From assembly GCA_963714975.1 (NCBI GenBank), contig CAVQQD010000002.1:192001-256000 (forward strand): a stretch of DNA of 64,000 nt. Reading direction: 5' to 3'. Below the pieces are notes generated by a model. It did no database searches. It worked only from the letters and a program-made list of their open reading frames with translations, and was not told where the DNA came from. Positions 14,836 through 63,924 of this stretch are shown piece by piece. A program made the translations under genes and the position numbers. The stretch comes from an uncultured Gammaproteobacteria bacterium. GTDB lineage: Bacteria > Pseudomonadota > Gammaproteobacteria > JAURND01. Numbering within the stretch: position 1 is the first letter of the stretch; the number at the start of each line of letters is the position of its first letter.

Positions 14836-14836
14836 T

Positions 14837-15175: not shown

Positions 15176-15188
15176 GAGAGAGAGCTTC

Positions 15189-34010: not shown

Positions 34011-34112
34011 CGACAGGCCCTAGTAAGATTCAATTTGATTTCGATGCCTGTTTAGTTACGCATCTCAAAAATTACTCCTAAAGTTGCATTTGGCTCCTAG
34101 TCGACTATGCTT

Positions 34113-35660: not shown

Positions 35661-35725
35661 GACTATGCTTAATAAACTGGAGAATCATATACCAGAATCG
35701 CAACGATTGACTGGCGGGCAGTGTT

Positions 35726-38700
35726 ATGGAGGATTACAATGTATTATTACCAATTTCAGAATATCAAAAACGATTCTTCTTGGAATGGGCTTTAGCCCCA
35801 AAGTCAAGCACCTATAATACATCCTTATGTTTCAAAATTACTGGAAAACTAAATAAACAAGCTTTAATTCAAGCATGTGATCTTTATATTAAAACAAATC
35901 CCATAGCAAGAGCCAAATTTAATGAAAGCGGAAATGAATGCTATCCCTCTAGCTATGAAATAAGTGATATTTATCATGAATTAGTCTTAGACTTCAACAA
36001 AAGTCTTAGATCAAAAATAAAACTCCTCTTAAAAAAATCATTTGATTTAACCAAGGGTAAATTATTACAATTTTACTTACTATCAGATGTACAGTTTCCT
36101 AATGAATATTATTTTATAATTCGAGCTCATCATATCATCTTTGATGGATCCATGAGCTTCATTATTCAAAAAGAATCTAGCATTATTGTATAACAATCTT
36201 ATTGAGAAAAACATAGACATTTCACATCTAGACTCATTAGGGAAAAATCATTTAATTCAACTCAATCAATTAATAGAGATTGAAAAAAACTATTTTAGTC
36301 AAGAATATTTTAAAGAAGCAAAAAAATTTTGGTTAGATTTTATATCTGACATCCCCTTGAATGTTCAACTACCTTATAAACCTGATTTTTTGATCAAAGA
36401 TTTAAATAATAAATTAGGAAATATTCATGGGAAAAACATTGATTGTAAATTAGATAGTGAGCAAACAGTCTTACTTAAACAGTATGCAAAGAACAACAAA
36501 GTTACTCTATTCTTATTGATCGCAGCTATATATGGTGTAATAGTTTCCAAGTATTCCAATCAGAATAAAATACTAATTAATTATCCTGTCAATATGCGAC
36601 CACCAGGCTACAAGGAAATTCCTGGATGTTTTATAAATAACACCCTATTAAAAACAGAACTAGATAACTTCGAAAGTTTTGAAGATTTAATCAAGAGCCT
36701 AGCAAGTCAACGAAAAAAAGTGATCAAACACCAAGGTTATTTATTAACCAATATTTTGTATGATCAACAATTAGCTAATGAAATTAATATAGATAATTAT
36801 TTCAATGTTAGTCTTGTCCGTACAAATTTGAGCGCAATTAATCTACTCAGCTTAAAAAACGTAGAAGTAGATGCTCTAGATATACCTTGGAGAACCAATG
36901 CAATTTACGAACTTGAATTGCTATATGATGATAGCGAACTGAAACAACTAAAATTTAGATTTAGTTATCGCTCAGCTTTATTTGACTCTAAAATCAATGG
37001 CACTACCTTAAGCCACAGAATATTTTAAAATCCTTTTATTTATTTTACGTAGCAATTTTTCTTTTTCGATTGCTCTGTTTCTCTTCAAGGCTGGAAATGG
37101 TTTCGGTCTTTGCTTGACTAGCCTGGGCTCCACCCTATCTGGTCTATTTCCAACTTTGTTTTGCACAATTAATTTTAACATCTCAATATACATTTTATGG
37201 TTGCTCACCTGATTTGAGCTTATAAAATAAGGAATAAATTCATTTAGTAGCTGCACACTTCCCTTAAAGCTTATTTCCCATGGATTAACGCCATACTCAT
37301 AACAAGCTTTTGCTATAATTATTCTGATAAAATTATATGCTAATAAATGAATTCCTATTTCTTTTCTAACCATTTCTGGTGTTTTGCACGATAACATATC
37401 CATATTCATGATACTTTTAATACTTCGCAAATTAAGCTCCACCTCCCACCTTCGCTTATATATTGGGCAAGCTCTGCTTTGTGGTATTTTTTGTCTAAAA
37501 ATGTTGTAACGTATATGTGGCCTGATACTTTAAATTCCCGTATGGAAATTTGATCGGGGTATGCCTCATATTGCTTTTGTGTCATCCATTCCGGTTTCTG
37601 TGGTTTCTCCCAGTTGACAATGTGATCATTTTTACCCAATTTTTGTCCCATTCTAAAATCATAATTCCTTTGACTTTGTCCGCGAAAAACACCATCAGCT
37701 CCTATTTTTTTTAAGTCCGCCATAAGAAAAAAATTGGGGTAATAACGGTCACCCAGCACAATATCGTCGGCTTTAATGCAGTTTATAATTTCTCTTAATA
37801 ATGAGATTTCTCCTGTGCCCTTTCCTTTGTGAGCCCCTATTGCATAATCTATTACGGTTCCCCGCGTCAGTGACATAACGGCTACTAATTCGCGCCATAG
37901 GAAATCCAGCCCCTTTTTTCTGATTACCATGCTGAGGAAATTTTTTTTGATTAGCTTTTGTATCCGACATTTTGACGGTAGATCCATCAAATGCTTTTAA
38001 TTCTCGGCCATAGACTTTCCATCTCATTGGAATAGATTTTCAAAGGGAAAGCTCCAGATTCTTTAACTAATGCCTTCACAGTATCTTCAGGCAATCGCTT
38101 TCTGGCCTTACAATAGGGGCCAGTATTTGAGCTTATTTTATTCTGCTTCTTTTTTTTACTATGCAGCTGCTCCACAACAACACCAGCAACCACTTTTTTG
38201 CAGGATTTATCTGGATTTAAAACTTGTTTAATAAACGTAAATAAGGTTTTGGTGGGGCTAATATATCCGGTCACGATATTCCCGGCACTCTCTAAGTATC
38301 TTCTGACATTTTTCTGAATTCAATAGGTTTAACAGGAAAATGTCTGGTGCACCATCAGCCAATTCTTGTCTTTTATTTTTAACTTGCTTAATTTTATTTT
38401 TCTTTTTAAAATTCACAGATCAGTTTCCTTTTTTTATTATTGTGTGTTTGCTACAACAATAATATTAAATTTGGAAACTGATTTCATCTTTTTTCATCTA
38501 AATCATAGGCTTATATTCATCTTTGCTCCTTAAGGTAGTGCCATTGGACTCTAAAATAATTAATTTTCTCATAGAATCATTCTTAGAATTTATTAAAAAA
38601 ATAACTATCAAAGTTAAAAATGAAGAAAACACAAGAATACTATTAGGAAACTTTTATCTTTTAAGCGATTTAACTTATAATCAAACTATAAAAAAATGGA

Positions 38701-41700
38701 ATAACACAGAAAATAATTATTCAACAAAAAAAAGTATTCTCCAACTATTTGAAGAACAAACTAAAAAAATTCCTACACAAATCGCTGTAGTAAGCCAAGG
38801 AATAAAACTTAGTTACCACGAGCTTAATGTACAGGCTAATCAGCTAGCACATTTTTTACAGCAGAAATATTCATTACAGGGAGATGACTTAATTGCCATA
38901 TGCCTAGACCGAAGCGAACAAATACTAATAGCAATATTGGCTGTTTTAAAAGCTGGAGCCGCATATGTACCATTGGATCCAAATAATCCAGACAAACGGA
39001 TCAGTTACATTTTACAGGATACCGAGGCCAAAGCTATATTGGCAAATAGCCCATACCAGAAGAAGTTAGTCGAAATAATAAATTATCATCAATTGAACAT
39101 TTCACTTGAAATTATTGACAGCACTGAATTAAAAAATAAGTTAAAAATTTACCCGCCAACTAATGTTCCATCTAATATTCTCAGTAACAATTTAGCGTAT
39201 ATAATTTATACCAGTGGCACAACAGGTACACCCAAAGGAGTAATGATTGAACATTCTAGCCTTATTAACTACACTTTAGATATCAGCCAAAGATTTAATG
39301 TTGAAAACAATGAATCTGCAATATTGATTTCCGAGTATATTTTCGATTTGGGAAATACCACTTTATTCCCTATTTTAATTAATGGTGGCACTATTCATAT
39401 TCCTAGTAAAGAACAGGCAACAAGCCATCAATTCATATTTAATTACATTAATTATAATGATATAAATTGGATTAAATGCACTCCTCTATATTTTGAGTTT
39501 GTCATATTGAACTTAGATTACACTCTCACTACTTCGTTTAAAAAAATAATTTTAGGAGGAGAAATTTGCAGCAATTCTTTAAAAGAATATTTAACAAATC
39601 AAACCAACGTGCAAGTTTTTAATCATTATGGGCCTACTGAGACCACAATCGGCTGCATCTGTAACACAGACTTCAAACATGGATATAATAATATTATTGG
39701 TAAACCGCTTGCAAACACCGTTGTATTTATTTTAGATAAATTTTTAAATATACTGCCGATTGGCGCAATGGGAGAACTCTATATTGGTGGCGCAGGCCTA
39801 GCACGTGGTTATTTAAATTTAACTGATTTAACTCTAGAAAAATTCATAAAAAATCCTTTTCAAACAGAAATAGAAAAACAAACAGGAAAAAATTCTCTCC
39901 TATACAAAACTGGGGATTTAGCCCGTTATTTACCTGATGGTTCTATTCAATATCTTGGTAGAAATGACCTCCAGGTCAAAGTCCGCGGCTTCCGCATTGA
40001 GCTAGGTGAGATTGAAAATCAACTTGTAAAATATCCAAGAATAAAGCAAGTAATTGTATTGGCTAGAGAACATCACGAGAATAAAACCCATTATCTAGTT
40101 GGTTATTATGTAGCGGATAATCGATTAAATGAAAACAAAATTCTTGAATACCTTTCTGCGCAATTACCAGACTACATGGTACCAAATATTCTAGTTTTCT
40201 TAGACAAACTACCTTTAACGATTAACGGTAAATTAGACAGAAAGGCATTGCCAGATCCAGAATTTAACAAAACAACTGAATATATACCGCCGCGTAATGA
40301 TTTAGAACGAAAAATTTGCGAAATGTACGCTGAAGTATTAGGTTTATCCGAAGAATCCATTGGGATCCATGACAACTTCTTTCGCCTAGGTGGTAACAGC
40401 ATTTTGGCTATAAAACTAGTTAGTCAAATGAATAAAATTATTTTCAGTGATCCTACATTTCATTTACCTCCCATTCAAGTAATAGAGATTTTTAAACATA
40501 AAAGAATTTTAGATTTATTGGACAGTATATTAAGTGAAGATGATAGAGAAACCATAATCATACCTAAAATTCAATATACCAAAAATCAAATAGAACAAGA
40601 AGAAAATAAAATTGCAAGCTTATCTTTTGCTCAAGAGCGCTTGTGGTTCATTGAAAATTATGAAGGTGGGACCAATGCTTATAATATACCTATACTAAGA
40701 AAATTATTACCCAATGTAAATATAAAATTATTGGAATTTGCGTTACATGAAGTTGTTGCTCGTCAAGAAATTTTACATAGTCTAATAAAAACAGATGATC
40801 AAGGGAATGGTTACCAGGAAGTAATGGATTTATCAATATTCCCATTCACCATAATCCATTATATTTTCTCACACGCTGAAGAACGAAAAATTTATATTGC
40901 TGGGGAAATAAATCATATCTTTAGTTTAGATAAGGAGTATCCCATTCGAATTCATCTTTTGAGGCAAAAAGATACAGAGGAAGAATATTTATTGATTGTA
41001 GCACACCATGTTTCATTTGATGGTTGGTCGATTCCTATATTTATTCACAATGTACAAGAATATTATAACTATAATTTAGCGCTAGAAACTGGTGATAACA
41101 ATCATGCTAATGCAATAAAATTAGCCATACCTGAGTTAACCATTCAATATAGAGATTTTGCCATTTGGCAAAAGAATTATTTAACTGGAGAGCGCCTGAC
41201 ACATCAACTAAAATACTGGAAAAATAAACTCATTGATTATGAAGGTTTACACTTACCTACGGATAAACCAAGACCACCGAAAATTAGCTATGTGGGACGC
41301 GATGTTCATTTTAGCATTGATCTCAACATCAGCAACCAATTAAGAGCGCTGGCAAAAGAAAAAGGGGTCAGTTTATATTGTGTATTATTAGCTGGATTTA
41401 ATTTGCTGTTACGGAGTTACAGCAATCAAGACGACATTGTCATCGGTACGCCCATTGCGAATCGACATCACCAGCAACTCGAAGATCTAATCGGTTTTTT
41501 TGTTAATAGCTTGGCTTTGCGAAGCCAAATAAATTCAGAACAACCCTTAAACGATTACATAACAGGAGTCGGACATGATGTGATTGAAGCACAACTGCAT
41601 CAAGATCTTCCATTTGAAAGGTTAGTCGAAGAATTGAAAATTCCCAAAGATCTTAGCCGTCACCCAGTATTTCAGGTAATGTTTGGTGTACAAAGTTTTT

Positions 41701-43814
41701 TTGCGACCACAACAGCCACATTGTTCGAAGCTGCTGCTTTAGAACTGGATTACTCCGTAGCAAAATTTGATTTAAGTGTTTTTGTCGATGACAGCCAAGA
41801 CGAATTATTTGGAGTATTTAATTATGCTGAAGGTTTATTTAAAAAAGAAACTATTACTCTGCTCCTTGCAACTTATCAGCGTATTTTATTCCAATTAGCA
41901 TACGAACCATTTATATTAATAAAAAATTTAAATTACCTTGATAAAACGAGTTACCAAAAAATTATTTATGCCTGGAATCAAACCGAGAAAGAGTACCCTG
42001 ACAATAAAACAATTCATCAATTATTCGAAGCACAAGTGGAAAGAACTCCTGAGCATATTGCTGTAGTATATAAAAATACCCAACTCAGCTATCGTGATCT
42101 TAATGCCAAAGCCAATCAATTGGCTCACTACCTAAGGCACAAATATCCAATTCAAGGCGATGACTTAATTGCTTTGTGTTTAGAGCGCAATGAACTGATA
42201 CTCACTAGCATCTTAGCTGTACTAAAAACTGGGGCTGCATATGTGCCAATTGATCCAGATTACCCTGACGAAAGAATCAACTATATTTTGGCAGATACAG
42301 CTACGCATTTGATCTTAACCAATGAAAATTCGCAAATGAAGCTAAGTGCCATTATAAACCATCATTCCTTACAAACACGAGTAGAGGCTATTGATAGCCA
42401 TGAGTTACAAAATAACCTAAATGCTTTTCAAGAAAACAATCTAGAACAACATATTAATAGTAATAATCTAGCTTATGTAATTTTCACTAGTGGCACTACT
42501 GGCAATCCTAAAGGAGTAATGATTGAACATAGGAGTGCTGTTAATACGATAACAGCTTTATCTGATATTTATTCTGTGTCAAGCTCAAATGAGACAACTG
42601 AGTTTACATCTTATGTATTTGACGTTTCGGTAGTTGAATCATTTGTTACTTTGATCAATGGTGCAAGGCTTCATTTATTATCAGAGGAAACTAAAAATGA
42701 TATTAAACAATTAAGTCAGTATCTTTTAGTTAACAAAATTAATGTTTGTTATCTACCACCTGCCTTATTATCACATCTCGACAAAATAGAGTATCCTAAT
42801 TTAAATAAAATATTTTATGCAGGGGAATCCTGTGATTTAACCACCGGCCGTTATTGGTCGAATGCCAAATTATTATTTAATTATTATGGACCAACTGAAA
42901 CAGCTATCTATGCGCTAGGTAAGCAAGTTATAAATAATGATGTCAATTTAATCGGACGCCCAATAACGAATACAACAACCTATATTCTTAACTCTAATCT
43001 TAATCCATTACCTCTAGGTGCAGTAGGTGAACTATATATTGGTGGTGCTGGTGTAGCACGTGGTTATTTGAATCTTCCCGATTTAACTACCACACGCTTT
43101 ATCATCAATCCGTTTCAAACGGAAGAAGAGAAAAAATTGGGGGGAAATGCTCGTCTTTACAAGACCGGTGATTTAGTGCGTTATTTACCCGATGGCAATC
43201 TTGAGTATATTGGTAGAAATGATTTTCAAGTTAAAATCCGCGGTTTTAGAATTGAGCTGGGTGAAATTGAAAATAAATTAATAGTCTATCCAGAAATAAA
43301 ACAAGCGGTGGTATTAGTTAAGGAGCATCAAACAAACAAAGAAAAATACCTCGTTGGCTACTATGTTTCAGAAAAATCCTTAGCACAGGATAGTATTCTA
43401 GATTACCTTCGCAGTCAATTACCGGACTATCTGGTTCCCAGCATTTTAGTTTGGTTAGAAAAATTTCCCTTAACCATCAATGGCAAATTAGATCGAAATG
43501 CATTACCTGATCCTGAATTCAGTCAAATCTCCAAATACGTTTCACCCCGCAATGATCTGGAACGTAAAGTTTGCGAACTGTATGCAGAAATACTAGGTAT
43601 TCCCACAATAGATGTGGGCATACAAGATAATTTTTTTCAATTAGGAGGGAATTCTATATTGGCAATTAAACTCGTAAATATAATAAAAAATGAATTAGGG
43701 ACAAAAATTCATTTGAAGGTAAGCGACATTTTTCAATACAAAACAATATCTAGTTTAGTCGAGAAATTATTCGAAGCTCCTTCAACCACTATTTACGATG
43801 AGGGAGAAATTTAG
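35726..43814 (+). pseudogene. NRPS 1 (Cstarter-A-T-C-A-T, ~2170 aa when reconstituted), interrupted by IS copy 2
   Basis: HHIIFDG starter C; removing the IS and one TSD rejoins FDSKI-INFLIES in frame; A domains with YTSGTTG.PKG, T GGNSI, C HHVSFDG; 1-nt indel near 36176. Confidence 0.88.
36995..38546 (-). mobile_element. IS4-family insertion sequence, copy 2 (transposase 37008..38416 with several indels)
   Basis: Same TIRs as copy 1; 11-bp target duplication GACTCTAAAAT (36984-36994, 38547-38557); near-identical to copy 1. Confidence 0.93.
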
Positions 43815-46800
43815 ATGAACGCATTGATCCTCCTATATAGATGTAACAACCAAGGTCTATATTTATACGTAGAAAATGAAAAACTAAAATATAAACAAGT
43901 GACGATTATAAATGAACCTATAAAATCCCAGCTAATGCAATTAATTAAACAACATAAACAAGAATTATTGTCCATATTATTAGATAATAACATTACTAGC
44001 TTTAATTTAGCAGACTATCCAATTATTTATCGAACAAAATCAAAGAAATCATCTTTGTCTTTCGCCCAAAAACGTTTATGGTTTATTGAACAATATGAAG
44101 GCGGAAGCAATGCATACAATATTCCATTACAAAAAAAATTACTAGCACAAACAAATACTCAATTATTGGAACACGCATTATTATCGGTTGTATCCCGTCA
44201 TGAAGTGTTGCACAGTTTAATCAAAAAAAATAGTAAGGGTAATGGCTATCAAAAAGTAATCGATTTAAATAGTTCACCACTCAAGATAGTCCATCATTCA
44301 CTTTCCGATTCTGTCGATCTCAAAAGTTATATTGATACTGCGATCAACCATATTTTTAATTTAAATAGCGAATATCCAATTAAAATTCATCTCTTGGAGC
44401 AACAAGATACCTCAGAAAAATATTTATTAGTTATCGTACATCACATCGCATTTGATGGTTGGTCAATCGATATACTGATGCGTGATTTACATGGTATTTT
44501 CGATCAGAAAATATTACCTGAATTAACCATACAGTATAAAGATTTTGCAGTATGGCAACGGAAATATCTCAGCGGCGAACGTTTAGAGCAGCAATTAAAT
44601 TATTGGAAAAATAAACTTAGTGATTATGCAGGATTATACCTACTCACTGATAAGCCAAGACCTCCAGAAATTAGTTATCTAGGCAACGATATTTATTTTA
44701 GTATTGATCCAAAGACCAGCATTCAATTAAGAGAAATTGCCAAAAAGCGAGGCATTAGTTTATACAGTGTATTATTGGCCGGATTTAATTTGCTATTAAG
44801 AAGCTACAGTAATCAAGATGATATTGTCATCGGCACCCCCATAGCTAATCGTAATTATCGACAACTTGAAAATCTCATCGGATTTTTTGTCAACAGTCTG
44901 GCTCTGCGAAGCCAAATAAATCCTGAGAAAACATTAAATAATTACCTAGAAGAAGTGGGTCGTGATGTCATTGAGGCACAACTGCATCAAGATTTGCCGT
45001 TTGAAAAATTGGTAGAAGAATTGGAAATCCCCAAGGATCCGAGCCGCCATCCCTTATTCCAGATAATGTTTGGGGTGCAAAACTTTGGCAGTACAGATCT
45101 GTCACCTGAATCGCTGTTTGCACCTAGTGTTCGCGAAGTTAATTATGGAATAGCAAAATTTGATTTAACCATCGTTATTGATGATAGCGAAACAGAATTA
45201 CAAGGAGTGTTTAATTATGCGGAGAGTTTATTTAATCAAGAAACGATAAAGGGATTAGTATCCACCTATCAACACATTCTACAACAAGTGGTTAATAAGC
45301 CATCTCTTCCTATAAAATCCTTGAGCTATCTCAGTGTAGCCAGTTATCAGAAAATTATTTATGAATGGAACCAAACTGCCAATGATTATCCTGCTGATAA
45401 AACTATTCAGCAACTATTCGAAGAGCAAGTGGCGCGAACCCCTGAAAATATTGCGGTAGTCTATGAAAATACTCAGCTTACCTATCACGAACTCAATGCT
45501 AAAGCCAACCAACTCGCGCATTATTTACAGCAGACCTATCAGCCGCAAGCAGATGATTTAATTGCGCTATGCTTGGATCGCAATGAACAAATGATTATCA
45601 CTATTTTAGCGGTATTAAAAGCTGGCGCTGCCTATGTTCCCATCGATCCTGGTTATCCGGAGGAACGCATCCATTATATTTTGAAAGATACTGCCACAAA
45701 ACTAGTGCTGGCTAACGCCAACAATTACGATAAATTAATTCATATAATTGAAGGGGTAAGTAATAACCAATTGCCAATCCATACCGAAGCCATCGATAGT
45801 ACGAAGTTTTCCAACAAATTAAATGCTTATCAAGAAACTAATCTCATACTACATATTCATAGTAATAACTTAGCTTATGTCATTTACACCAGTGGCACTA
45901 CTGGGACACCTAAGGGAGTCATGGTTGAGCATACTGCGGTAGCCAGTTTTGCTATTAATAATAATTATATTATTTTAAACAGTGAATCCAATGTTTTGGG
46001 TTATGCTAACTATGTATTTGATGGGAGTATTTTTGATATTTTTGTCACTTTATTAAATGGGGCTAAATTGCATTTAATTAAAACAGAAGATGCTCTTAAT
46101 GTTGATAAATTTTCTGCGAAAATTAATGCCTATAAAATAAATTATATTTTTACCACAACAGCATTATTTCAAAACTATATATTGCTACCAAATAACCCAT
46201 TTTTACTTATACAAAACATTTATTTTTGCGGTGAAAAAGCAAGTACTGATTTAATCTCTACCTTTATCGATCAAACTACGGTTAATCTTACCCATGTATA
46301 CGGTCCAACAGAAAATGTCGTATTTTCTACTTACTGCGTTTTAAATAAAGATAATATAACTATTTCTCCTATCGGCAAACATTTAAATGATAAAACTCTT
46401 TATATCCTTGATACCCAGCTACATCCTGCACCTATTGGCGCAATTGGCGAGTTATATATCGGTGGCGCTGGAGTCGCACGCGGTTATTTAAATCTTCCTG
46501 ATTTAACGGCCGAACGCTTTATCACCAATCCCTTTCAAACAGAGGATGAAAAGAAACTCGAGAAAAATGCTCGTCTATACAAGACCGGTGATTTGGTGCG
46601 TTATCTCCCTGATGGCAATCTTGAATATATCGGCAGAAATGATTTTCAAGTTAAAATCCGTGGCTTTCGAATTGAGCTGGGTGAAATTGAAAATAAATTA
46701 CTAGCCTATCCAGGAATCACACAAGCAGTGGTATTAGCGAGAGAACATGAAGAAACCCAGGGAAAATATTTAGTAGGTTATTATGTTGCGGAAAAATCCT

Positions 46801-49800: not shown

Positions 49801-52800
49801 AGGAGCTGGATTATCCTTTGGCAATCATCGCCTACGAACAAGCGGAAACTCTCCAGATTAATCTAAAATATGCAAGAGAGTTATTTAGTCAAGCAACCAT
49901 TACCACTTTATTACATAATTTAGAATTCGTGTTATACCAAATCACGGTCAGCAAAATAGCACAACCCAAAAGTCTTAACTATCTTGACTCAGACAATTAC
50001 CAAAAAATTATTTATGAGTGGAACCAAACGGAAAAAGATTACCCTGCTGATAAAACTATTCAGCAATTATTCGAAGCACAAGTCGAGAGAACGCCCGAAC
50101 ATATTGCTGTAGTCTTTGAAAATACTCAGCTTACCTACCACGAACTCAATGCTAAATCCAACCAACTCGCGCATTATTTACAGCAGACCTATCAGCCACA
50201 AGCCGATGATTTAATTGCGCTATGCTTGGATCGCAGCGCACAGATGATTATCACTATTTTAGCGGTGTTAAAAGCGGGTGCCGCCTATGTGCCAATTGAT
50301 CCTGGCTATCCAGAGGAACGTATCCAGTATATTTTGCAAGATACCGACACAAAATTAGTGCTGGCTAATGTTAACCATTACGATAAATTAATTCATATAA
50401 TTGAATGCGTGAGTAATAACCAATTGCCGATCCATACCGAAGCTATTGATAGTCCGGAGTTTTCCAACAAATTAAACGCGTATCAAGAAACCAATCTCAA
50501 GCAACATGTTCATAGTACTAATTTAGCTTATGTGATTTATACGAGTGGCACTACCGGAAAACCAAAGGGAGTATTACAGCAACATAATAACGTTCATCGA
50601 CTATTTTCAGCAACAGAGGAACTATACCATTTTCACAGCAATGATGTATGGACGCTATTTCATTCCTACATTTTCGATTTTAGTGTATGGGAAATTTGGG
50701 GCGCTTTATTTTATGGTGGCAAACTGTTCATCCCAAGCTACGAACAAACTAGGGATATAAGCTTATTTTATCAACTCTGTGATCAGTATGGCGTAACAGT
50801 GTTGAATCAAACTCCCACCGCCTTTTATCAATTGATCAATGCAGCTAGCGCTAACCCTCATCATCGCTTAGCTAGCCTACGATATGTTATTTTTGGTGGC
50901 GAAGCCCTGAATTTATCACAATTACTGCCTTGGTTTAATGTTTATGACTATGATAAACCCAGGTTAGTAAACATGTACGGCATAACCGAGACTACTGTCC
51001 ATGTAACTTATAAACTAATACAAGCAGAAGATCTAGGAAATAGTTCCTATATAGGAGAACGGCTACCTGATCAAAAAATATATATCGTCGATGCTGACCT
51101 TAAGCCAATACCTATTGGCGCAATTGGCGAGTTATATATCGGTGGCGCTGGAGTCGCACGCGGTTATTTAAATCTTCCTGATTTAACGGCCGAACGCTTT
51201 ATCACCAATCCCTTTCAAACAGAGGATGAAAAGAAACTCGAGAAAAATGCTCGTCTATACAAGACCGGTGATTTGGTGCGTTATCTCCCTGATGGCAATC
51301 TTGAATATATCGGCAGAAATGATTTTCAAGTTAAAATCCGTGGCTTTCGAATTGAGCTGGGTGAAATTGAAAATAAATTACTAGCCTATCCAGGAATCAC
51401 ACAAGCAGTGGTATTAGCGAGAGAACATGCAGAAACCCAGGGAAAATATTTAGTAGGTTATTATGTTGCGGAAAAATCCTTGGCGCAGGACTGCATCCTT
51501 GACTATCTAAGCGGTCAATTACCCGATTATATGCTCCCCAGCAGTTTAGTGTGGTTAGACACATTGCCCTTAACCATTAATGGTAAATTAGATCGAAATG
51601 CATTACCTGATCCTGAGTTTACGACTCTATCCAATTATGTCGCCCCGCGCAATGATCTCGAAGCTAAAGTCTGTGCCATATATGCTGAAGTTTTGCATGT
51701 ACCTGTTGCCAATATTGGTATTCGAGATGATTTCTTTCGATTAGGTGGTGACAGTATTGTCAGTATTCAACTCGTCAGCCGTTTACGCCAACGCTTGGGA
51801 TTAACGCTTAGCGTTAAAGATATTTTTACCTACAAGACCGTCGAAAAACTTTACGATAGGTTGTTGGCAGCACAGGAATTAATCAGCGGTGAAAGAGCTG
51901 ATTTAGTGCTGCGTGAAAGCGGTTTACTCTCTGGTGATCTGGGGCTTTTACCGATCCAAGCCTGGTTTTTCAACCACGTGACGAATGGTTTCTATCCACA
52001 ACCCGGGCATTGGAATCAAGCCTTTTTAATCAAAACAGAGAAACTTGACCCCGCATTATTAAAACATAGCTTGGTAAAATTAATCGAGTATCACGATGCC
52101 TTCAGATTAAATTATCGCTTAACCGATGCAGGTGATTACCAACAATACTACAATCCAAGCATTAATGATAAAAACCTAGATTTTTCTTATTTGGACATGA
52201 CACCTTTCACCAATCCTGACCAATACCAACGTATTTTAACCGATTGGCAAAGTCATTTTGCATTATTCAGTGATTCGCCCTTATATCAAATAGGATATCT
52301 GGAAAATTATCCTGATGGCAGTAGCCGTATTTTTGTCGCGCTCCACCATTTATTAATCGATGCCGTTAGTTGGCGCATCATTACTCATGATTTACATGAA
52401 CTGTATGAAAAATTAAGTGCTGCAGAAAAAAATAATCAACTCGATCAAGTCATGCAACAAAGCAGTGAAACTTTACTCGGTAAAAAAGGCACTAGCTATC
52501 GTCAATGGGTAGAACAAGTGCACGCGTATGCGCATCACTCCGATGAGCAAGAATATTGGCTAACGCAATTATCCGATCTTGCCGCCATGGAACAGCAATT
52601 AACCAATTTAGTCGTAAGTGAGACTACGAGAAACTACGTGCAATGGAGTTTGGATCGAGAAAATACTCGACGATTACTCACCGAAAGCAATCGTGCTTAT
52701 CACACTGAAATCAACGATTTATTATTAACGAGTTTTGCTCGGGCATTGGTCGAATTAACCCAACAAGAAATTCATCATATTATTACCTTAGAAGGCCATG

Positions 52801-55800
52801 GTCGCGAAGAAATTGCACCACACCTTGATATTACGCGGACGGTAGGTTGGTTTACTACTTTGTACCCCGTTAAATTGGCAATACACCCAGAAAGTATGGC
52901 AAAATCTATTGTGCAGGTGAAAGAACATTTGCGCAAAATTCCACACAAGGGCATTGGTTATGGCGCCTTATTAGGCTATATCAATCATCCCTTACCTCGC
53001 ATCAGTTTTAATTATCTTGGCCAACTTAATGCCGGCATAGAGCAAGCTCATTGGCATATCACCGGTGAACCTTGCGGCATCACCATCGTTCCGGAAAATC
53101 CAGACCCTAATATCATTAATGCCAATGGTATAGTCACTCAAGGTGAACTACGATTTACCATAGCAGCTAAAATCAGTCAGCAAAATTTAGCACGATTTGC
53201 TGAGGCTTTTAAACAACAATTACTCTCACTGATTCAGTATACCGTCGACTTGCCACGAACGTATTTAACTGCGAGTGATATTGACGATATTATCAGTCAA
53301 GATTATTTAGATAAAATCCAGGATACGCGTGAAATCAGCCACGTCTATCTCGCCAATAGTTTACAGCAGGGATTTATTTATCATGCCTTAAGTCAAGAAT
53401 TAGATACTGCTTATCGCGTGCAGATCGTATTTCATTACCACAATCCTTTAGAGCCCGAATTGTTACGCATGGCTTGGCAAGGAGCATTGCACAAATATCC
53501 TGCTTTAAGACTACGATTTTCCTGGGATGAAGCCTTAGTGCAAATCATCGATCAGCATCAAGAGTTACATTGGCAATATAGCGATATCAGTGCACAAACA
53601 TCAGAGTTACAAGAACAATTTATTCATGACTTAGTCAGCCAAGATCGTCAACATCCGTATCATTTAGATCAAGGGCATTTGTTGCGGATTTTCCTAATCA
53701 AGCAAGGAGAGACACACTATACCTGTCTTTTCAGCTGCCATCATGCCATTCTTGATGGTTGGAGTAATCCTATCTTACTGGGTTTTGTGCATGATTTGTA
53801 TGAGCAACTGTATGCTAACCGCACTAACAGCACAGCACAAGCACGCATTTTATCCACAATTCAAGAAGAAACCGCCTACCCTTTAAGCCAGGCTTATTGG
53901 CAAAAAACTGATGTAGCTAGTCAAGCGTTTTGGCAACAGGAAATAGCGCGCATTACTGACCATGCGAATTTAAATGGCCTACTTCGCCCTGAGAAACGAA
54001 GCGTGCGTTTAGCAGAATATCGGTTTATTGAACATAAATCAGAGGTAGCTAGCAAAATTCAAGGACCGTTGTATCAAGCCATCAAAGCATATTGCTCTGA
54101 GCTTGGGGTGACGGTGAATACCGTACTGCAATATGGGTGGCATAAATTGCTGAGTGTGTATGGCAATAGCCCTATTACGGTGGTGGGCACCACAGTTTCA
54201 GGACGAAATTTACCCATTGATCATATTGAAAAATCAGTGGGTTTATATATTAATACCTTACCGTTAATCCTTGAACATGAGGATGATAAAACGATTGCCG
54301 CTCAAATAACCCTACTTCAAAACAAAATTAATGAGATCAATAGTCATAGTGCGATCAGCTTAGCGAAATTACAACACTCGGATAGCAGATTATTTGACAG
54401 TTTATTTGTTTTTGAAAACTATCCCGTTCCACAAAAAATTGCAGACCGTGTACTTAAAGTCAGTGGCTTTCGCGGTACCGAGGAGCTGGATTATCCTTTG
54501 GCAATCATCGCCTACGAACAAGCGGAAACTCTCCAGATTAATCTAAAATATGCAAGAGAGTTATTTAGTCAAGCAACCATTACCACTTTATTACATAATT
54601 TAGAATTCGTGTTATACCAAATCACGGTCAGCAAAATAGCACAACCCAAAAGTCTTAACTATCTTGACTCAGACAATTACCAAAAAATTATTTATGAGTG
54701 GAACCAAACGGAAAAAGATTACCCTGCTGATAAAACTATTCAGCAACTATTTGAAGAGCAAGTCGAGAGAACGCCCGAACATATTGCTGTAGTCTTTGAA
54801 AATACCCAACTCAGCTATCGTGATCTTAATGCCAAAGCCAATCAATTAGCTCACTACCTAAGGCACAAATATCCAATTCAAGGCGATGACTTAATTGCTT
54901 TGTGTTTAGAACGCAATGAACAGATACTCACTAGCATCTTAGCTGTGCTAAAAACTGGGGCTGCCTATGTGCCAATTGATCCAGATTATCCTGACGAAAG
55001 AATCAACTATATTTTGGCAGATACAGCTACGCATTTGATCTTAACCAATGAAAATTCGCAAATGAAGCTAAGTGCCATTATAAACCATCATTCCTTACAA
55101 ACACGAGTAGAGGCTATTGATAGTCCTGAGTTATACAACAAATTAAATGCTTATCAAGCAACAAATCCCACGCCGCCTATTCATAGTACTAATTTAGCTT
55201 ATGTGATTTATACCTCAGGTTCTACCGGTCAACCTAAAGGGGTATTGATCAAACATGGAAGTTTGATCAATGCATTGCAGGCGGTAGATGCGATGATTCA
55301 AGTTTCCAGCCATGACCGCTTCTTGGCTTTAACGACATATACATTTGATATTTCTGGTTTGGAATTTTATTTACCTCTGCTTAAAGGAGCTACTTGCGTG
55401 ATTGCTCCAGACAAAGCCAGAATAGATATGACTGTTCTTAAACAAATTCTTCACACCAAAGCTATAACTATCATGCAAGCCACCCCAGCTACCTGGTTAA
55501 TGCTTCGTCATTCAAACTGGCAAAGCAAGAAACCATTAAAAATACTTTGTGGCGGCGAAACATTAACTATGCAACTCGCTGCCTCCTTGATTGAGAATCA
55601 TCATCAAATATGGAATATGTATGGTCCAACAGAAACTACCATTTGGTCATCCTGTTGCTTATTACAGGCTGGCAAAGTTAATCCTCCACCAATTGGAAAA
55701 CCACTAGCAAATACTCAATTTTACGTGCTAGATCCCCTTACAAATCCTGTACCTATTGGAGTTACCGGTGAGTTATACATCGGAGGAGATGGTCTAGCAC

Positions 55801-58800
55801 GAGGTTATTTAAATCTTCCTGATTTAACTGCCGAACGTTTTGTCATCAATCCATTTCAAACAGAAAATCAGAAAAAGCACGGGAAAAATGCTCGCCTATA
55901 CATGACCGGTGATTTAGTGCGTTATTTACCTGATGGCAATATTGAATACATTGGGAGAAATGATTTCCAAGTTAAAATCCGCGGCTTTAGAATTGAGTTG
56001 GGTGAAATTGAAAATAAATTAATAGCCTATCCAGAAATAAAACAAGCGGTAGTGTTAGTTAAGGAACATCAAACAAACAACGAAAAATACCTCGTGGGTT
56101 ATTATGTGGCAGACCAGCCACTCGATGAAAATGCTGTATTAGATTATCTGCATCATCAACTTCCTGAATACATGGTGCCTAGTGTCTTGGTTTATTTAAC
56201 CCAACTACCTTTAACCATCAGTGGGAAATTAGACCGTAGCGCATTACCTGATCCAGAATTGAGTAAAATCACTGAATATGTACCTCCTCGCAATGATTTA
56301 GAACGAAAAGTCTGTGAGATCTACGCAGCAGTTTTAGGTTTACCACCTACTTCTGTGGGCATTCGGGATAATTTCTTTCGCTTAGGGGGTAATAGTATTT
56401 TAGCTATTAAGCTTGTCAGCCAATTAAATAAGCAAATTTTTTCTGACCCCTCTTTTCAAGTAGAAAAATTAATTCAAGTCGCTGAAATTTTTCGGCATAA
56501 AACTATCTTAAGTTTATTAGACAGTCTTTTAAGCGAAGACGAAAGCGAGACCATCATTATTCCTAGCCAAGGACCTATCCAAAAAGCAGGTTTATCTTTT
56601 GCCCAAGAACGTTTATGGTTTATTGAACAGTATGAAGTTGGAAGCAATGCCTATAATATTCCATTGTTGAAAAAAATACCTGCACAAGTCGATGCTCGAT
56701 TGTTGGCACAAGCGTTACTCTCGGTTGTATCCCGCCATGAAGTATTACATAGTTTGATCAAGACTGATAGTCAGGGTAATGGTTATCAAGAAGTCATCGA
56801 CTTAAATAGTTCACCATGTAACATTGCTTATCACTCGTTCTCTGATTCTGCCGCACTTAAAAAATATATTGATACCGAAATCAATCATATTTTTAATTTA
56901 AATAGCGAATATCCCATTAGAATTCAGCTCCTAACCCAACAAGATACTGCAACAAACTATTTGTTGATCGTGGTACATCACATCGCGTTTGATGGTTGGT
57001 CAATTGAAGTATTTATGCGTGATCTGCAAGCGCTTTATCAGCACGAGCCCTTGCCAGAATTAACCATTCAATATAAAGATTTTTCCATTTGGCAAAGGAA
57101 TTATTTAACTGGAGAACGCCTAGCCCATCAATTAAATTATTGGAAAAATAAACTTAGTGATTATGCTGGATTACATCTACCCACCGATAAACCAAGACCT
57201 CCTGAAATTAGTTACCTAGGCAACGATGTTTATTTTAGTATTGATCCAAAGACTAGCACTCAATTAAGAGAAATTGCTAAAAAGCTAGGCATCAGTTTAT
57301 ACAGTGTATTACTGGCCGGATTTAATTTGCTACTAAGAAGCTACAGCAATCAAGATGATATAGTCATAGGCACTCCCATTGCCAACCGCCACCATCAACA
57401 ACTCGAAGATCTTATCGGATTTTTTGTCAATAGTCTGGCTCTGCGCAGCCAAATAAATCCCGAGCACGCATTGAATCATTACCTAGAAGAAGTGGGTCGT
57501 GATGTGATCGGGGCACAACTGCATCAAGATCTACCCTTTGAAAAATTGGTAGAAGAACTGGAAATTCCCAAGGATCGCAGCCGTCATCCCCTGTTCCAAG
57601 TCATGTTTGGAGTACAAAGTTTTGCAACTACAACAGCTGAATTATTGGAGCCTGCTTCTTTCACACTGAATTATCCTGTAGCGAAGTTCGATTTAAGTGT
57701 TTTTCTCGATGATAGCTACGCCGAATTAAGGGGAAATTTTAATTATGCGGAGAGTTTATTTACGAAAGAAACCATCAATATTCTCATTGCCATCTATCAA
57801 CGTATTTTGTCACAATTAGCATATGAGCCATTGCTACTAATAAAAAACTTAAGTTATCTCGATGCCACGAGTTATCAAAAAATTATTTATGAGTGGAACC
57901 AAACGGAAAAAGATTACCCTGCTGATAAAACTATTCAGCAACTATTTGAAGAGCAAGTGGCACGAACCCCTGAAAATATTGCCGTAGTTTATGAAAATAC
58001 TCAGCTTACCTACCACGAACTCAATAGCAAAGCCAATCAACTCGCGCATTATCTACAACAAACCTATCAGCCACAAGCCGATGATTTAATTGCGCTATGC
58101 TTGGATCGCAGTGAACAGATGATTATCACCATTTTAGCGGTATTAAAAACTGGCGCTGCCTATGTTCCCATCGATCTTGGTTATCCCGAGGAACGTATCC
58201 AGTATATTTTGCAAGATACTGCCACCAAGCTAGTGCTGACTAATGCCAGACATCAAGATAAATTAACTCATATAATCGACGGTGTGGGTAGTTATCAATT
58301 ACTGATCAACATCGAAGCCATTGATAGTCTTGAGTTATACAACAAATTAAATGCTTATCAAGCAACAAATCCCACGCCGCCTATTCATAGTACTAATTTA
58401 GCTTATGTGATTTATACCTCAGGTTCTACCGGTCAACCTAAAGGGGTATTGATCAAACATGGAAGTTTGATCAATGCATTGCAGGCGGTAGATGCGATGA
58501 TTCAAGTTTCCAGCCATGACCGCTTCTTGGCTTTAACGACATATACATTTGATATTTCTGGTTTGGAATTTTATTTACCTCTGCTTAAAGGAGCTACTTG
58601 CGTGATTGCTCCAGACAAAGCCAGAATAGATATGACTGTTCTTAAACAAATTCTTCACACCAAAGCTATAACTATCATGCAAGCCACCCCAGCTACCTGG
58701 TTAATGCTTCGTCATTCAAACTGGCGAAGCAAGAAACCATTAAAAATACTTTGTGGCGGCGAAACATTAACTATGCAACTCGCTGCCTCCTTGATTGAGA

Positions 58801-61800
58801 ATCATCATCAAATATGGAATATGTATGGTCCAACAGAAACTACCATTTGGTCATCCTGTTGCTTATTACAGGCTGGTAAAGTTAATCCTCCACCAATTGG
58901 AAAACCACTAGCAAATACTCAATTTTACGTGCTAGATCCCCTTACAAATCCTGTACCTATTGGAGTTACCGGTGAGTTATACATCGGAGGAGATGGTCTA
59001 GCACGAGGTTATTTAAATCTTCCTGATTTAACTGCCGAACGTTTTGTCATCAATCCATTTCAAACAGAAAATCAGAAAAAGCACGGGAAAAATGCTCGCC
59101 TATACATGACCGGTGATTTAGTGCGTTATTTACCTGATGGCAATATTGAATACATTGGGAGAAATGATTTCCAAGTTAAAATCCGCGGCTTTAGAATTGA
59201 GTTGGGTGAAATTGAAAATAAATTAATAGCCTATCCAAAAATAAAACAAGCGGTAGTGTTAGTTAAGGAACATCAAACAAACAACGGAAAATACCTCGTG
59301 GGTTATTATGTGGCAGACCAGCCACTCGATGAAAACGCTGTATTAGATTATCTGCATCATCAACTTCCTGAATACATGGTGCCTAGTGTCTTGGTTTATT
59401 TAACCCAACTACCTTTAACCATCAGTGGGAAATTAGACCGTAGCGCATTACCTGATCCAGAATTGAGTAAAATCACTGAATATGTACCTCCTCGCAATGA
59501 TTTAGAACGAAAAGTCTGTGAGATCTACGCAGCAGTTTTAGGTTTACCACCTACTTCTGTGGGCATTCGGGATAATTTCTTTCGCTTAGGGGGTAATAGT
59601 ATTTTAGCTATTAAGCTCGTCAGCCAATTAAATAAGCAAATTTTTTCTGACCCCTCTTTTCAAGTAGGAAAATTAATTCAAGTCGCTGAAATTTTTCGGC
59701 ATAAAACTATCTTAAGTTTATTAGACAGTCTTTTAAGCGAAGACGAAAGCGAGACCATCATTATTCCTAGCCAAGGACCTATCCAAAAAGCAGGTTTATC
59801 TTTTGCCCAAGAACGTTTATGGTTTATTGAACAGTATGAAGTTGGAAGCAATGCCTATAATATTCCATTGTTGAAAAAAATACCTGCACAAGTCGATGCT
59901 CGATTGTTGGCACAAGCGTTACTCTCGGTTGTATCCCGCCATGAAGTATTACATAGTTTGATCAAGACTGATAGTCAGGGTAATGGTTATCAAGAAGTTA
60001 TCGACTTAAATAGTTCACCATTTAACATCGCTTATCACTCGTTCTCTGATTCTGCCGCACTTAAAAAATATATTGATACCGAAATCAATCATATTTTTAA
60101 TTTAAATAGCGAATATCCCATTAGAATTCAGCTCCTAACCCAACAAGATACTGCAACAAACTATTTGTTGATCGTGGTACATCACATCGCGTTTGATGGT
60201 TGGTCAATTGAAGTATTTATGCGTGATCTGCAAGCGCTTTATCAGCACGAGCCCTTGCCAGAATTAACCATTCAATATAAAGATTTTTCCATTTGGCAAA
60301 GGAATTATTTAACTGGAGAACGCCTAGCCCATCAATTAAATTATTGGAAAAATAAACTTAGTGATTATGCTGGATTACATCTACCCACCGATAAACCAAG
60401 ACCTCCTGAAATTAGTTACCTAGGCAACGATGTTTATTTTAGTATTGATCCAAAGACTAGCACTCAATTAAGAGAAATTGCTAAAAAGCTAGGCATCAGT
60501 TTATACAGTGTATTACTGGCCGGATTTAATTTGCTACTAAGAAGCTACAGCAATCAAGATGATATAGTCATAGGCACTCCCATTGCCAACCGCCACCATC
60601 AACAACTCGAAGATCTTATCGGATTTTTTGTCAATAGTCTGGCTCTGCGCAGCCAAATAAATCCCGAGCACGCATTGAATCATTACCTAGAAGAAATGGG
60701 TCGTGATGTGATCGAGGCACAACTGCATCAAGATTTACCCTTTGAAAAATTGGTAGAAGAACTGGAAATTCCCAAGGATCGCAGCCGTCATCCCCTGTTC
60801 CAAGTCATGTTTGGAGTACAAAGTTTTGCAACTACAACAGCTGAATTATTGGAGCCTGCTTCTTTCACACTGAATTATCCTGTAGCGAAGTTCGATTTAA
60901 GTGTTTTTCTCGATGATAGCTACGCCGAATTAAGGGGAAAATTTAATTATGCGGAGAGTTTATTTACGAAAGAAACCATCAATATTCTCATTGCCACCTA
61001 TCAACGTATTTTGTCACAATTGGCATATGAGCCATTGCTACTAATAAAAAACTTAAGTTATCTCGATGCCACGAGTTATCAAAAAATTATTTATGAGTGG
61101 AACCAAACGGAAAAAGATTACCCTGCTGATAAAACTATTCAGCAACTATTTGAAGAGCAAGTGGCACGAACCCCTGAAAATATTGCCGTAGTTTATGAAA
61201 ATACTCAGCTTACCTACCACGAACTCAATAGCAAAGCCAACCAACTCGCGCATTATCTACAACAAACCTATCAGCCACAAGCCGATGATTTAATTGCGCT
61301 ATGCTTGGATCGCAGTGAACAGATGATCATTACCATTTTAGCTGTGTTAAAAGCTGGTGCTGCCTACGTACCCATCGATCCTGGTTATCCTGAAGAACGC
61401 ATCCATTATATTTTGCAAGATACTGCCACCAAGCTAGTGCTGACTAATGCCAGACATCAAGATAAATTAACTCATATAATCGACGGTGGGGGTGGTTATC
61501 AATTGCCGATCCATATCGAAGCCATCGACAGCCCTAATTTACAAAACCAATTAAATGCTTATCAAGAGACTAATCCCATACTACATATCCATAGTAATAA
61601 CTTAGCTTATGTCATTTACACCAGTGGCACTACTGGGAATCCAAAAGGAGTGATGATTGAACATAAGAACGTTGTGAACTTAGCTGTAATGCAAGCCAAG
61701 GAATTTAGTTTATCGACACAATCGATAGATAACGCAAAAATTCTAAATTGCTTAGAATATGCAAATTATGTGTTTGATGCGCATGTTTGGGAATTATTCA

Positions 61801-63682
61801 CAGTGATAAGTAATGGACATATCCTACATATAGCAAGTGATAGAATACGTCCAGACATAGAGCTATTATCAGAATATATTAATCTTCATAAAATTTACCT
61901 AGCAACCATACCACCCGCATTATTATCGGTAGATACTTTATTGCCACTGAGCATTTTAGTAGTTGCCGGAGAAAAAACAACAAAGATATATTGAAGTTTT
62001 ACCGAAATAATCAAATAGCTGTAGTCAATGGTTATGGACCTACAGAATCGACAGTCTGCGCCACATTAAATCACTATCATGAAAATGATTTAAGTACCGA
62101 CATTGGGAAACCAATCGCTAACATTACAATCTATATTTTAGATATCTATTTAAACCCAATACCGATTGGCGCGATAGGTGAACTGTACATCGGAGGAGCC
62201 GGGCTAGCCCGCGGCTATTTAAATCTTCCTGATTTAACTGCCGAACGTTTTATCCCCAATCTATTTCAAACAGAAGACGAAAAGAAATTTGGAAAAAATA
62301 CACGCCTCTATAAGACCGGTGATTTAGTGCGTTATCTTCCTGATGGCAATCTCGAATATATCGGCAGAAATGATTTTCAAGTTAAAATCCGTGGTTTTAG
62401 AATTGAGCTGGGTGAAATTGAAAATAAATTAATAGCCTACCCAGAAATAAAACAAGCGGTAGTGTTAGTTAAGGAACATCAAACAAACAACGAAAAATAC
62501 CTTGCGGGCTACTATGTTGCAGACCAACCACTCGATGAAAACGCTATGTTAGATTATCTACATCATCAACTTCCTGAATACATGGTGCCTAGTGTCTTGG
62601 TTTATTTAACCCAACTACCTTTAACCATCAATGGGAAATTAGATCGTAGCGCATTACCTGATCCAGAATTGAGTAAAATCACTGAATATGTACCTCCTCG
62701 CAATGATTTAGAACGAAAAGTCTGTGATATTTACGCAGCAGTTTTAGGTTTACCACCTACTTCTGTGGGCATTCGGGATAATTTCTTTCGCTTAGGGGGT
62801 AATAGTATTCTTGCAGTCAAATTAATCGCACTATTAAATAAAAAGTGTAATACTTATTTAAAAGTTGCAGAATTGTTTAGTTCTAAATCTATTCTAGATT
62901 TAATAAAACTAATAACAACAATGCGTATAAAATATAAGACCATTGTAAAGCTTAATAATGCTAAAAATAAACCATTAATGTTAATGATCCATCCAGGTAA
63001 TGGTGGGTGTGAAGTTTACGCAGATTTAGCAAAACGCTCGTCCAATTTTTATGCTTGTTATGGCATAGATAATTATAACTTATATCATAGAGATAAATTT
63101 CAAACGCTGCACAGTCTATCTAATTACTACTTAAGTCTTATAGAAAAACAATTTGACTTAAACAACAAACAAACTGAAATCATATTATTTGGGTGGTCAT
63201 TAGGGGGTTTAATTAGTCTTGAAATAGCCAATATCCTAGAGCAACGTAGTCATACTCGCATAAGAGTTTATTTATTAGATACTATTATCGACGACGAACA
63301 ATTGACACAACTAAAACAATTAAATGAAAAAATAATTAAAAAACAAATTTATGAATATTTTAAGAAAAATTATAATAAAAATTATGCACGAAAAATCATT
63401 GATAACTTTAGTATCGAAGAAAAAATAGGTCATGAAAAGATTTCTGATTTTTTGCGTTATACAAAAATAACTTTATTCAAAGCCATGCAGAAAGATACCA
63501 CAATTGAAGCAACTGCTTCAATTGGTGAATATATCGAAAATTTACCCTACAACAATGTAGACAAAATTGTACGCGATCTTTCTCAACTGACGGTTGTTAA
63601 TGTCGAGCAGGCTAATCACTCAAACATTCTGAAATTTCAGGAAATATTGTTACAGCACTTAGTTAGTCCAAAAATTCTCTAA
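43815..63682 (+). CDS. NRPS 2: docking-C-A-T-E-C-A-T-E-C-A-T-C-A-T-C-A-T-TE (~6600 aa; apparent 1-nt frameshift near 61980)
   Basis: HHIAFDG and HHAILDG C domains, HHLLIDAVSW E domains after GGDSI T domains, five A domains, TE with GWSLGG; ORFs 43815..61994 and 61991..63682 join within A7. Confidence 0.93.
46431..54800 (+). repeat. Intragenic ~3.7-kb direct repeat (offset 4680 bp): A C-terminus-T-E-C
   Basis: 46431-~50120 is near-identical to 51111-~54800, with only scattered substitutions. Confidence 0.9.
55118..61490 (+). repeat. Intragenic tandem duplication of a whole module (3204-bp period)
   Basis: ~55118-58290 is near-identical to ~58322-61490; duplicates Gly A core-T-C-A N-terminus. 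Confidence 0.9.
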
Positions 63683-63818
63683 TTCCTTGAGGAAGTTTGA
63701 TTTGGGTCTTAGCCTTATAACGCATCTCATATACCTATCCGATGCACATAAATCGGTCAGCAATTCTCGCTGAAACCCTATTCCCCGACGGGTCCTGCCG
63801 CGGCACCCCACCGTGCTC

Positions 63819-63924
63819 GTAGCATCATATCCCTTCTCCCACAATGCTTTTTTGTGGGAGAAAAGGTGGCCGCCAGGCCGAATGAGGGTGTTTGAAATGG
63901 CTATAAGAAGGGATATGATGCTAC
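63819..63924. repeat. REP-like element enclosed by a 19-bp perfect inverted repeat, downstream of the NRPS
   Basis: GTAGCATCATATCCCTTCT / AGAAGGGATATGATGCTAC around CTTCTCCCACAA...TTGTGGGAGAA. Confidence 0.75.

Follow-up and report, generated by a model that had tools for sequence, protein, structure and literature searches.

A canonical seven-module non-ribosomal peptide synthetase locus with a recent, non-fixed insertion sequence in its putative starter condensation domain

Lipoinitiation of the surfactin type takes acyl-CoA from primary metabolism, and an adjacent gene is unnecessary for it. In Legionella, clusters for non-ribosomal peptide synthetases (NRPSs) are the most prevalent type of biosynthetic gene cluster and only one Sfp-type phosphopantetheinyl transferase (PPTase) is present, as stated in passages of Tobias et al. 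2016 (PMC5126622). Here we describe an NRPS locus located at positions 35,726-63,682 of a 64,000 bp stretch of DNA (contig CAVQQD010000002.1, positions 192,001-256,000; hereafter the window) from an uncultured soil gammaproteobacterium. The original prediction, made from the letters of this stretch, had proposed a lipopeptide-type synthetase of seven modules. Judged by its sequence the locus is a real and canonical type I NRPS that originally consisted of two genes. It is an orphan NRPS of a well-known kind that carries a recent and non-fixed insertion sequence (IS), and the frameshifts seen in its assembled copy are not trustworthy.

Domains were called with Pfam on the open reading frames (ORFs) and on 33 overlapping tiles of 450 residues. 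The order of condensation (C), adenylation (A), carrier (T), epimerisation (E) and thioesterase (TE) domains obtained was C / IS / A-T-C-A-T / C-A-T-E-C-A-T-E-C-A-T-C-A-T-C-A(N-terminal part) / A(C-terminal part)-T-TE, corresponding to one N-terminal C, seven A-T pairs, six more C, two E-type C and one thioesterase (Table 1). Seven copies of the module are present in the DNA, with start-to-start spacings of 3,255, 3,420, 4,680, 4,641, 3,204 and 3,206 bases. As in other type I modular NRPSs, the seven A, seven T and seven C domains display motifs A3 and A8, the A10 lysine, GGxS and HHxxxDG; GG(N/D)S was found in all T domains (7/7) and HHxxxDG in all C domains (7/7). HHLLIDA, EGHGR and FNYLG are present in both E1 and E2, and every catalytic motif of the line is intact. 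The TE scored 33.5 bits with Pfam Thioesterase (versus 26.4) and has the expected GWSLGG motif at 63,191-63,208, its Asp and His being placed by eye only. The seven modules, the positional starter C, the two E/DCL pairs and the terminal TE of the original prediction were all borne out. Its claim of two abutting genes held in part. The TAG/ATG junction is present at 43,812-43,817, but in this assembly the region is split into five plus-strand reading-frame pieces, not two genes, the line being interrupted three times: by the IS and by one-base shifts in the first C and in A7. The continuous frame expected of NRPS proteins is thus not found in the window.

Pairwise identities separated the C-type domains into four classes. 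Domains C2, C3, C6 and C7 (the LCL class), in which LSFAQ.RLWFIE is found, are 63-99% identical to one another; C4 is the same sequence as C5 (100% identity), and both are 29-31% identical to the LCL group; E1 and E2 share 455 of 461 residues (99%); and the first C is only 19-23% identical to every other C-type domain of the line. Both E domains exceeded the NCBIfam cut-off of 74.2 bits for TIGR01720 (84.2 and 86.6 bits), and each is followed by a C domain of a class distinct from LCL, which is the arrangement of epimerisation followed by DCL condensation. E1 and E2 align to positions 2,784-3,233 of PRK05691 and C4 and C5 to its next segment (3,250-3,720); because these segment positions fit, the E-then-C pairing is the standard one.

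Specificity codes were read at ten pocket positions that we anchored on the motifs FDxS, NxYGPTE and NGK.DR (core motifs A4, A5 and A10) and that we take to correspond to GrsA numbering. All seven ten-letter codes came out exactly as originally read: DLTKIGHIGK for A1, DVVYFAYIYK for A2, DGFFYCVVFK for A3, DFWNIGMVHK for A4, DILQLGMIWK for both A5 and A6, and, read across the frame shift, DAWTVAGVCK for A7. By comparison with the canonical codes, we take A1 to be Asp-type, A3 Ile-like and A7 Phe-like. The A7 pocket stretch matches the chains of Phe-activating GrsA (1amu) and TycA, which rank directly after LgrA. A text search for the six codes in a library of papers returned the Gly and Thr codes only and did not find those of A1, A2, A3 and A7; in passages of PMC12283262, DILQLGMIWK is listed with the domains that activate Gly and DFWNIGMVHK with those of Thr type. 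The substrates of the seven A domains are accordingly given here as predictions. Gene 1 would comprise the starter C, an Asp-type A, T, an LCL domain, A2 (residue X) and T, and gene 2 would continue as LCL-A(Ile-like)-T-E, DCL-A(Thr)-T-E, DCL-A(Gly)-T, LCL-A(Gly)-T and LCL-A(Phe-like)-T-TE. The backbone Asp-X-D-(Ile-like)-D-Thr-Gly-Gly-(Phe-like) that had been proposed follows from the re-read codes, and under colinearity the predicted product would be a heptapeptide, L-Asp-X-D-(Ile-like)-D-Thr-Gly-Gly-(Phe-like), with a cap, probably an acyl group, at its N-terminus. The TE would release this heptapeptide, although acylation and mode of release are both predictions, a Thr-Phe lactone, as originally suggested, being one possible form; priming of the T domains would fall to the single Sfp-sized PPTase of the genome. 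No product with these residues in this order is known to us. Based on sequence, to read the locus as a capped-heptapeptide synthetase is reasonable.

The largest interruption of the line is an IS of the IS4 family. The element is 1,548-1,552 bases long, carries a minus-strand gene for a DDE_Tnp_1 transposase (Pfam 1.3e-21 for copy 1) and is present in 12 copies at ≥99.55% identity in the genome. The transposase profile, the perfect terminal inverted repeats of at least 18 bases and the target duplications of 10-11 bases are those of IS4-family elements. Copy 1, which ends 65 bases before the NRPS start codon, is flanked by the 10-base duplication GACTATGCTT (34,103-34,112 and 35,661-35,670). 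Copy 2, which lies inside gene 1, is flanked by the 11-base duplication GACTCTAAAAT (36,984-36,994 and 38,547-38,557). Since the targets are duplicated on both sides, each IS entered sequence that was already contiguous. The concern that a chimeric join might lie near 34 kb is thereby settled too: the IS at that place has its 10-base target duplication, and its flanks were once contiguous. Just upstream of copy 1, a repeat of about 60 bases (33,944-34,006) was observed that recurs in at least 15 other places on all three contigs at 84-100% identity.

The frame before copy 2 reads ...RSALFDSK and after it (DSK)IINFLIESFLEF..., continuing into A1 (ALFDSK/IINFLIES). Because the frame resumes across the IS, the insertion point is placed within the last helix of this C domain. 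Copy 2 thereby separates the starter C from A1, and this allele therefore cannot make the capped product. Compared to the other 11 copies, copy 2 has four private one-base indels and one private substitution; in those 11 copies taken together, only one insertion (of one base) and one deletion (of two bases) were seen. With the error-like indels set aside, copy 2 differs from the consensus by one substitution, which indicates that the insertion is recent. An IS4-family element has thus hit the final helix of the starter C in the assembled molecule, and did so recently.

Two other records show both states of this site. P0275 (ENA) is a protein of 1,082 residues encoded on a single contig of 8,278 bases, free of the IS and of the shift at ~36,170. 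Over residues 1-149, 151-423 and 420-1075 it agrees fully with the window pieces; at the position of the window's shift its sequence is FIIQKDLALLY, and its frame passes through the IS site without a break. P0440, a protein of 950 residues from a record with a contig of 8,283 bases, starts at a GTG inside the right IS end and differs from the window by one substitution. This substitution, the only one among the three records, is located in T1 at 40,368, where the window and P0275 read IGIHDNFF and P0440 reads IGIDDNFF. Because P0275 has the empty site and P0440 the IS junction, both alleles exist. The insertion is not fixed: a near-identical contig carries gene 1 without the IS.

The two remaining interruptions are probably consensus errors of the assembly and not decay. 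In the S10 operon, within 13,982-15,750 (1.8 kb) of the same window, rplB is spread over three frames and rplV and rpsC each over two frames with a return, making six shifts, and rpsS has an in-frame TGA near its end. The rplB gene has a single match in the genome and an intact frame of 275-278 codons in three family relatives, and fusA, tuf, secY, rpoA, uvrA and hemE are intact. As no essential single-copy gene can be dead, the assembly has local patches of indel errors. The region 36,170-38,260, with five indels in 2.1 kb, resembles another such patch. In addition, P0275 shows the unbroken form of the first 1,075 residues and has a private shift near 40,512, and P0440 has a private shift near 41,357. 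Three near-identical records that each shift at different places display the pattern of random consensus error. A genome-wide pairing of adjacent ORFs gave 869 candidate pairs, mostly normal operon neighbours, and the ribosomal operon of the window served as the control instead. The shift in A7 lies between AGEK and NNKDILKFY..NGYGPTES, the module spacing being 3,204 bases before and 3,206 after. We infer that it is an error as well, by analogy; it remains an analogy because nothing else covers 61,972-61,977.

The alternative that survives best, which we consider unlikely, is that the cluster is a true decaying pseudogene, in which the IS and both frameshifts are real lesions of a genome that is shedding accessory genes. 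It would account for three independent lesions in 28 kb and agrees with the 12 copies of an active-looking IS; both frameshifts, moreover, lie in or beside A-runs. Shifts of the same kind, however, occur six times in 1.8 kb of essential single-copy ribosomal genes, and with these shifted likewise, a shift in this assembly is no sign of decay. The shift in the first C is absent from P0275, and the 6,059-codon frame of gene 2 and every catalytic motif are intact. If, furthermore, the embedded IS had truly gained four indels since its insertion, a neutral NRPS of 26 kb should have dozens, and it has two. Old decay as the origin of the four private IS indels and the two NRPS shifts was rejected in view of the ribosomal-gene shifts and of P0275. 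As local patches of one-base indels break even essential ribosomal genes, readings of a dead gene in this genome need support from reads.

The predicted capped product depends on the first C acting as a starter domain. Its Pfam match begins at residue 8 of the ORF, and a stop codon lies 15 bases upstream; the domain thus opens the first module at its very N-terminus, and no carrier domain precedes it. An exhaustive HMMER search with a 280-residue piece of this domain gave 16,903 matches, the best 150 of which were examined. Among these 150, all 36 hits with at least 30% identity (36/36) lie within the first ~440 residues of their targets, and the hits at 21-29% come from giant synthetases, in which several weak internal matches add up. 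In BLAST, the N-terminal piece is matched as well by 31 of these 36 close relatives, starting at target residues 3-20, and the other five are N-terminally cut. Most of the 31 open with a LPISEYQKRFFLEW-like string, as the window does. The elongation domain C2 is matched in that stretch by the same 36 proteins at only ~20-28%. The first C thus belongs to a strictly N-terminal clade and is, by position, a starter C. A grouping with the LCL domains of the line, which would have contradicted the original prediction, was not observed: compared to the 63-99% within the LCL class its identities are low, and its closest relatives are found only at protein N-termini. The best outside identity of the starter C is ~47%. 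Ten relatives were looked up, and the only organism names among them were Chitinophaga and a Bacteroidales metagenome-assembled genome, both with generic annotation.

It is possible, if less likely again than decay, that the first C performs no lipoinitiation and caps the peptide with a small or aromatic acid, or is a vestige, so that the product is not a lipopeptide. The clade is uncharacterised, its named relatives among the ten being those just mentioned; the best PDB matches of the first C are not the solved starter C domains; and no gene for an acyl ligase or acyl carrier protein is adjacent. On the other hand, lipoinitiation of the surfactin type needs no such neighbour, HHxxxDG is intact in the first C, and its relatives are confined to protein N-termini. 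Equally doubtful, in our view, is a more far-reaching proposal according to which this starter C clade could load an unusual cap, giving a structurally new capped heptapeptide whose second residue is unassigned, and IS-occupied and empty alleles coexist such that producers and non-producers segregate in one soil population.

The idea that the IS-bearing allele is the normal one, and that the line works without a starter C through a predicted restart near the IS end to give an uncapped heptapeptide from A1, has an open frame from 38,502 through A1 to T2, possible starts at 38,523 (TTG) and 38,538 (GTG, as called for P0440) and an intact downstream part except for the A7 shift in its favour, but is very improbable given the recent insertion (one substitution from the consensus once indels are set aside), the empty allele at 100% protein identity and a starter C that is still fully conserved.

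We therefore favour, with moderate confidence in the reading as a whole, a canonical NRPS for a capped heptapeptide that has a recent, non-fixed IS in its starter C and frameshifts that are consensus errors. The following points weigh against it. P0275 and P0440 may be other assemblies of the same data, in which case "polymorphic" could mean between assemblies or samples. Sequence matches of the first C pieces in PDB were weak and mixed, and a solved starter C was not singled out. The A2 code matches nothing assignable and that of A3 is only loosely Ile-like. The synthetase is adjoined by no acyl-activating, tailoring, export or MbtH gene. Finally, no record covers the A7 shift, the only near-identical hit of that ORF being the window's own protein, and the single sequencing run that contains this DNA covers neither shift (59,500-63,900 examined). 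That run (Logan contigs, a soil metagenome, share 0.05) gave two identical 151-base pieces, at 60,275-60,425 and 60,537-60,687.

Two long direct repeats are present within gene 2. The first pair flanks different pockets, those of A3 and A4. The second, with 56 mismatches in 3,201 positions, extends from the A3 motif, near which it breaks, over T and C into the N-terminal part of the next A; the Gly pockets within it are identical. These repeats would fit a recent tandem duplication, a gene conversion acting on the flanks of modules, or both. As in known cases of concerted evolution or duplication of modules, flanks of 3.1-3.6 kb are 99.4-99.6% identical although modules 3 and 4 have different pockets. 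Modules 5 and 6 differ in that they share the pocket too, and a plain recent tandem duplication fits them equally well.

Upstream of the locus are ribosomal protein operons, ssb, an MFS transporter gene, uvrA, hemE, a gene for an ankyrin-repeat protein and an unassigned ORF; downstream are genes for a short-chain dehydrogenase, a ferritin-like protein and a histidine acid phosphatase, and a fragment of a different transposase. At the start of the window, an AAA-ATPase_like/PDDEXK_9 gene is complete at 3,782-5,500, and an upstream fragment at 1,894-2,610 matches only the last 57 positions of that ATPase profile. The GC content drops from ~0.40-0.48 upstream to 0.32-0.41 over the NRPS, which suggests a foreign origin of the latter. 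The earlier statement that the window has no PPTase, MbtH or exporter gene stands for the first two; an MFS transporter gene is present at 26,111-27,487, 8 kb away beside ssb and uvrA. In the whole genome, which is 93.75% complete, MbtH (PF03621) gave no match. The only PF01648 match in the genome is located at 871,904-872,227 of contig C2, within a 242-codon frame of Sfp size. As this is the only match, and as passages of PMC5126622 report the same for Legionella, a single PPTase presumably serves both the fatty-acid and the NRPS carrier proteins.

The view that large NRPSs are uncommon does not hold for this lineage: the genome encodes a second one in a 6,164-codon open frame (contig C2, 935,731-951,852, minus strand), and further NRPS-like loci are located on contig C3 (740-750 kb, 804-811 kb and 187-189 kb); these other loci are 32-55% identical to gene 1. 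Out of eight genomes of the same family seven gave matches at E ≤ 0.001 and five at E ≤ 1e-96, the latter with open frames of 1,327-5,288 codons, and the identity of gene 1 to related genomes is 42-43%. The host had been called Legionellales-like, and this was not confirmed: all named SecY relatives are labelled "Gammaproteobacteria bacterium", and the non-self SecY hits among the matches listed are 73-92% identical. As for relatives of the cluster, the best outside match of gene 1 (A1-T1 region) is 44-48% identical, and that of the ORF at the TE end is 52% identical in the protein collection. Searched against species genomes, the latter ORF gave 17 loci in many phyla at 33-53% identity and no orthologous cluster, and a scan of JGI metagenomes with P0275 gave 51 pattern matches, none of which is a relative. 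In agreement with the original prediction, no close characterised cluster appeared in the protein-collection and species-genome searches.

Table 1. Positions of reading frames, domains, IS copies, frame shifts and repeats in the window.
Feature	Position	Strand	Evidence
ORF	35,726-36,193	+	ORF map
ORF	36,186-37,028	+	ORF map
ORF, 1,763 codons	38,523-43,814	+	ORF map
Gene 2 ORF, 6,059 codons	43,815-61,994	+	ORF map
ORF, 563 codons	61,991-63,682	+	ORF map
ORF inside the IS copy 2 region	37,406-37,990	-	ORF map
IS4-family copy 1, transposase open over 466 codons	34,113-35,660	-	Pfam DDE_Tnp_1, ends and duplication
IS4-family copy 2, 1,552 bases, inside gene 1; transposase in at least 4 frame pieces	36,995-38,546	-	
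Starter-type C, first ~423 residues, motif HHIIFDG	35,726-36,994	+	Pfam Condensation on two pieces, profile 5-149 and 179-418
One-base shift (one extra base) just after HHIIFDG of first C	~36,168-36,175	+	Frame reading
Rest of gene 1: last helix of starter C, A1, T1, C2, A2, T2; ends in stop TAG	38,547-43,814	+	Pfam tiles
A1	38,748-40,232	+	Pfam tiles
T1	40,308-40,517	+	Pfam tiles
C2 (LCL)	40,608-41,963	+	Pfam tiles
A2	42,024-43,487	+	Pfam tiles
T2	43,566-43,763	+	Pfam tiles
C3	44,043-45,356	+	Gene 2
A3	45,417-46,907	+	Gene 2
T3	46,986-47,183	+	Gene 2
E1	47,262-48,527	+	Gene 2
C4 (DCL)	48,657-50,009	+	Gene 2
A4	50,070-51,587	+	Gene 2
T4	51,666-51,863	+	Gene 2
E2	51,942-53,237	+	Gene 2
C5 (DCL)	53,337-54,689	+	Gene 2
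A5	54,750-56,228	+	Gene 2
T5	56,304-56,504	+	Gene 2
C6	56,583-57,884	+	Gene 2
A6	57,945-59,432	+	Gene 2
T6	59,508-59,723	+	Gene 2
C7	59,787-61,088	+	Gene 2
A7, N-terminal part	from 61,149	+	Gene 2
-1 shift in an A-run of six bases inside A7	61,972-61,977	+	Three-frame reading
A7, C-terminal part	to 62,638	+	Third frame 61,991-63,682, Pfam
T7	62,717-62,914	+	Third frame, Pfam
TE	62,981-63,679	+	Third frame, Pfam
Direct repeat 46,500-50,100 recurring at +4,680, 99.6% identity	46,500-54,780	+	C-terminal part of A, T, E and next C of modules 3/4
Direct repeat 55,200-58,300 recurring at +3,204, ~99.4% identity	55,200-61,504	+	Modules 5/6/7

If the product of the locus exists, this uncultured gammaproteobacterium is the source of a further orphan non-ribosomal peptide, which is useful for genome mining and unsurprising. 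The locus also provides a natural example of an IS insertion caught in both the occupied and the empty state, and another of module flanks that were kept or made identical around different specificity pockets.

Compared to the lipopeptide NRPSs of surfactin, Pseudomonas and Bacteroidota, the locus has the same C-A-T first module and the same colinear C-A-T logic, and its end is a predicted type I TE. It also shares with NRPSs that begin with a starter C the succession of each E by a distinct C class and the presence of an Sfp-sized PPTase elsewhere in the genome. It differs from them in that the outside identities listed above are low (44-48% for gene 1, 52% for the TE end and ~47% for the starter C), and the first C matches the "Surfactin synthetase" chain 8f7f weakly (1.7e-5). 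The order of E followed by C is the same in PRK05691 (NF004282, "non-ribosomal peptide synthase/polyketide synthase"), which we take to be PvdL-like; with ~250 bits versus a whole-protein cut-off of 4,090 bits, this model serves as a yardstick for domains and assigns no family. As in the Legionella NRPS clusters treated in passages of Tobias et al. 2016 (PMC5126622), which describe a single Sfp-type PPTase, one PF01648 match in a 242-codon frame is present here; the examples in those passages are mostly monomodular, whereas the synthetase described here has seven modules and a host known only as gammaproteobacterial.

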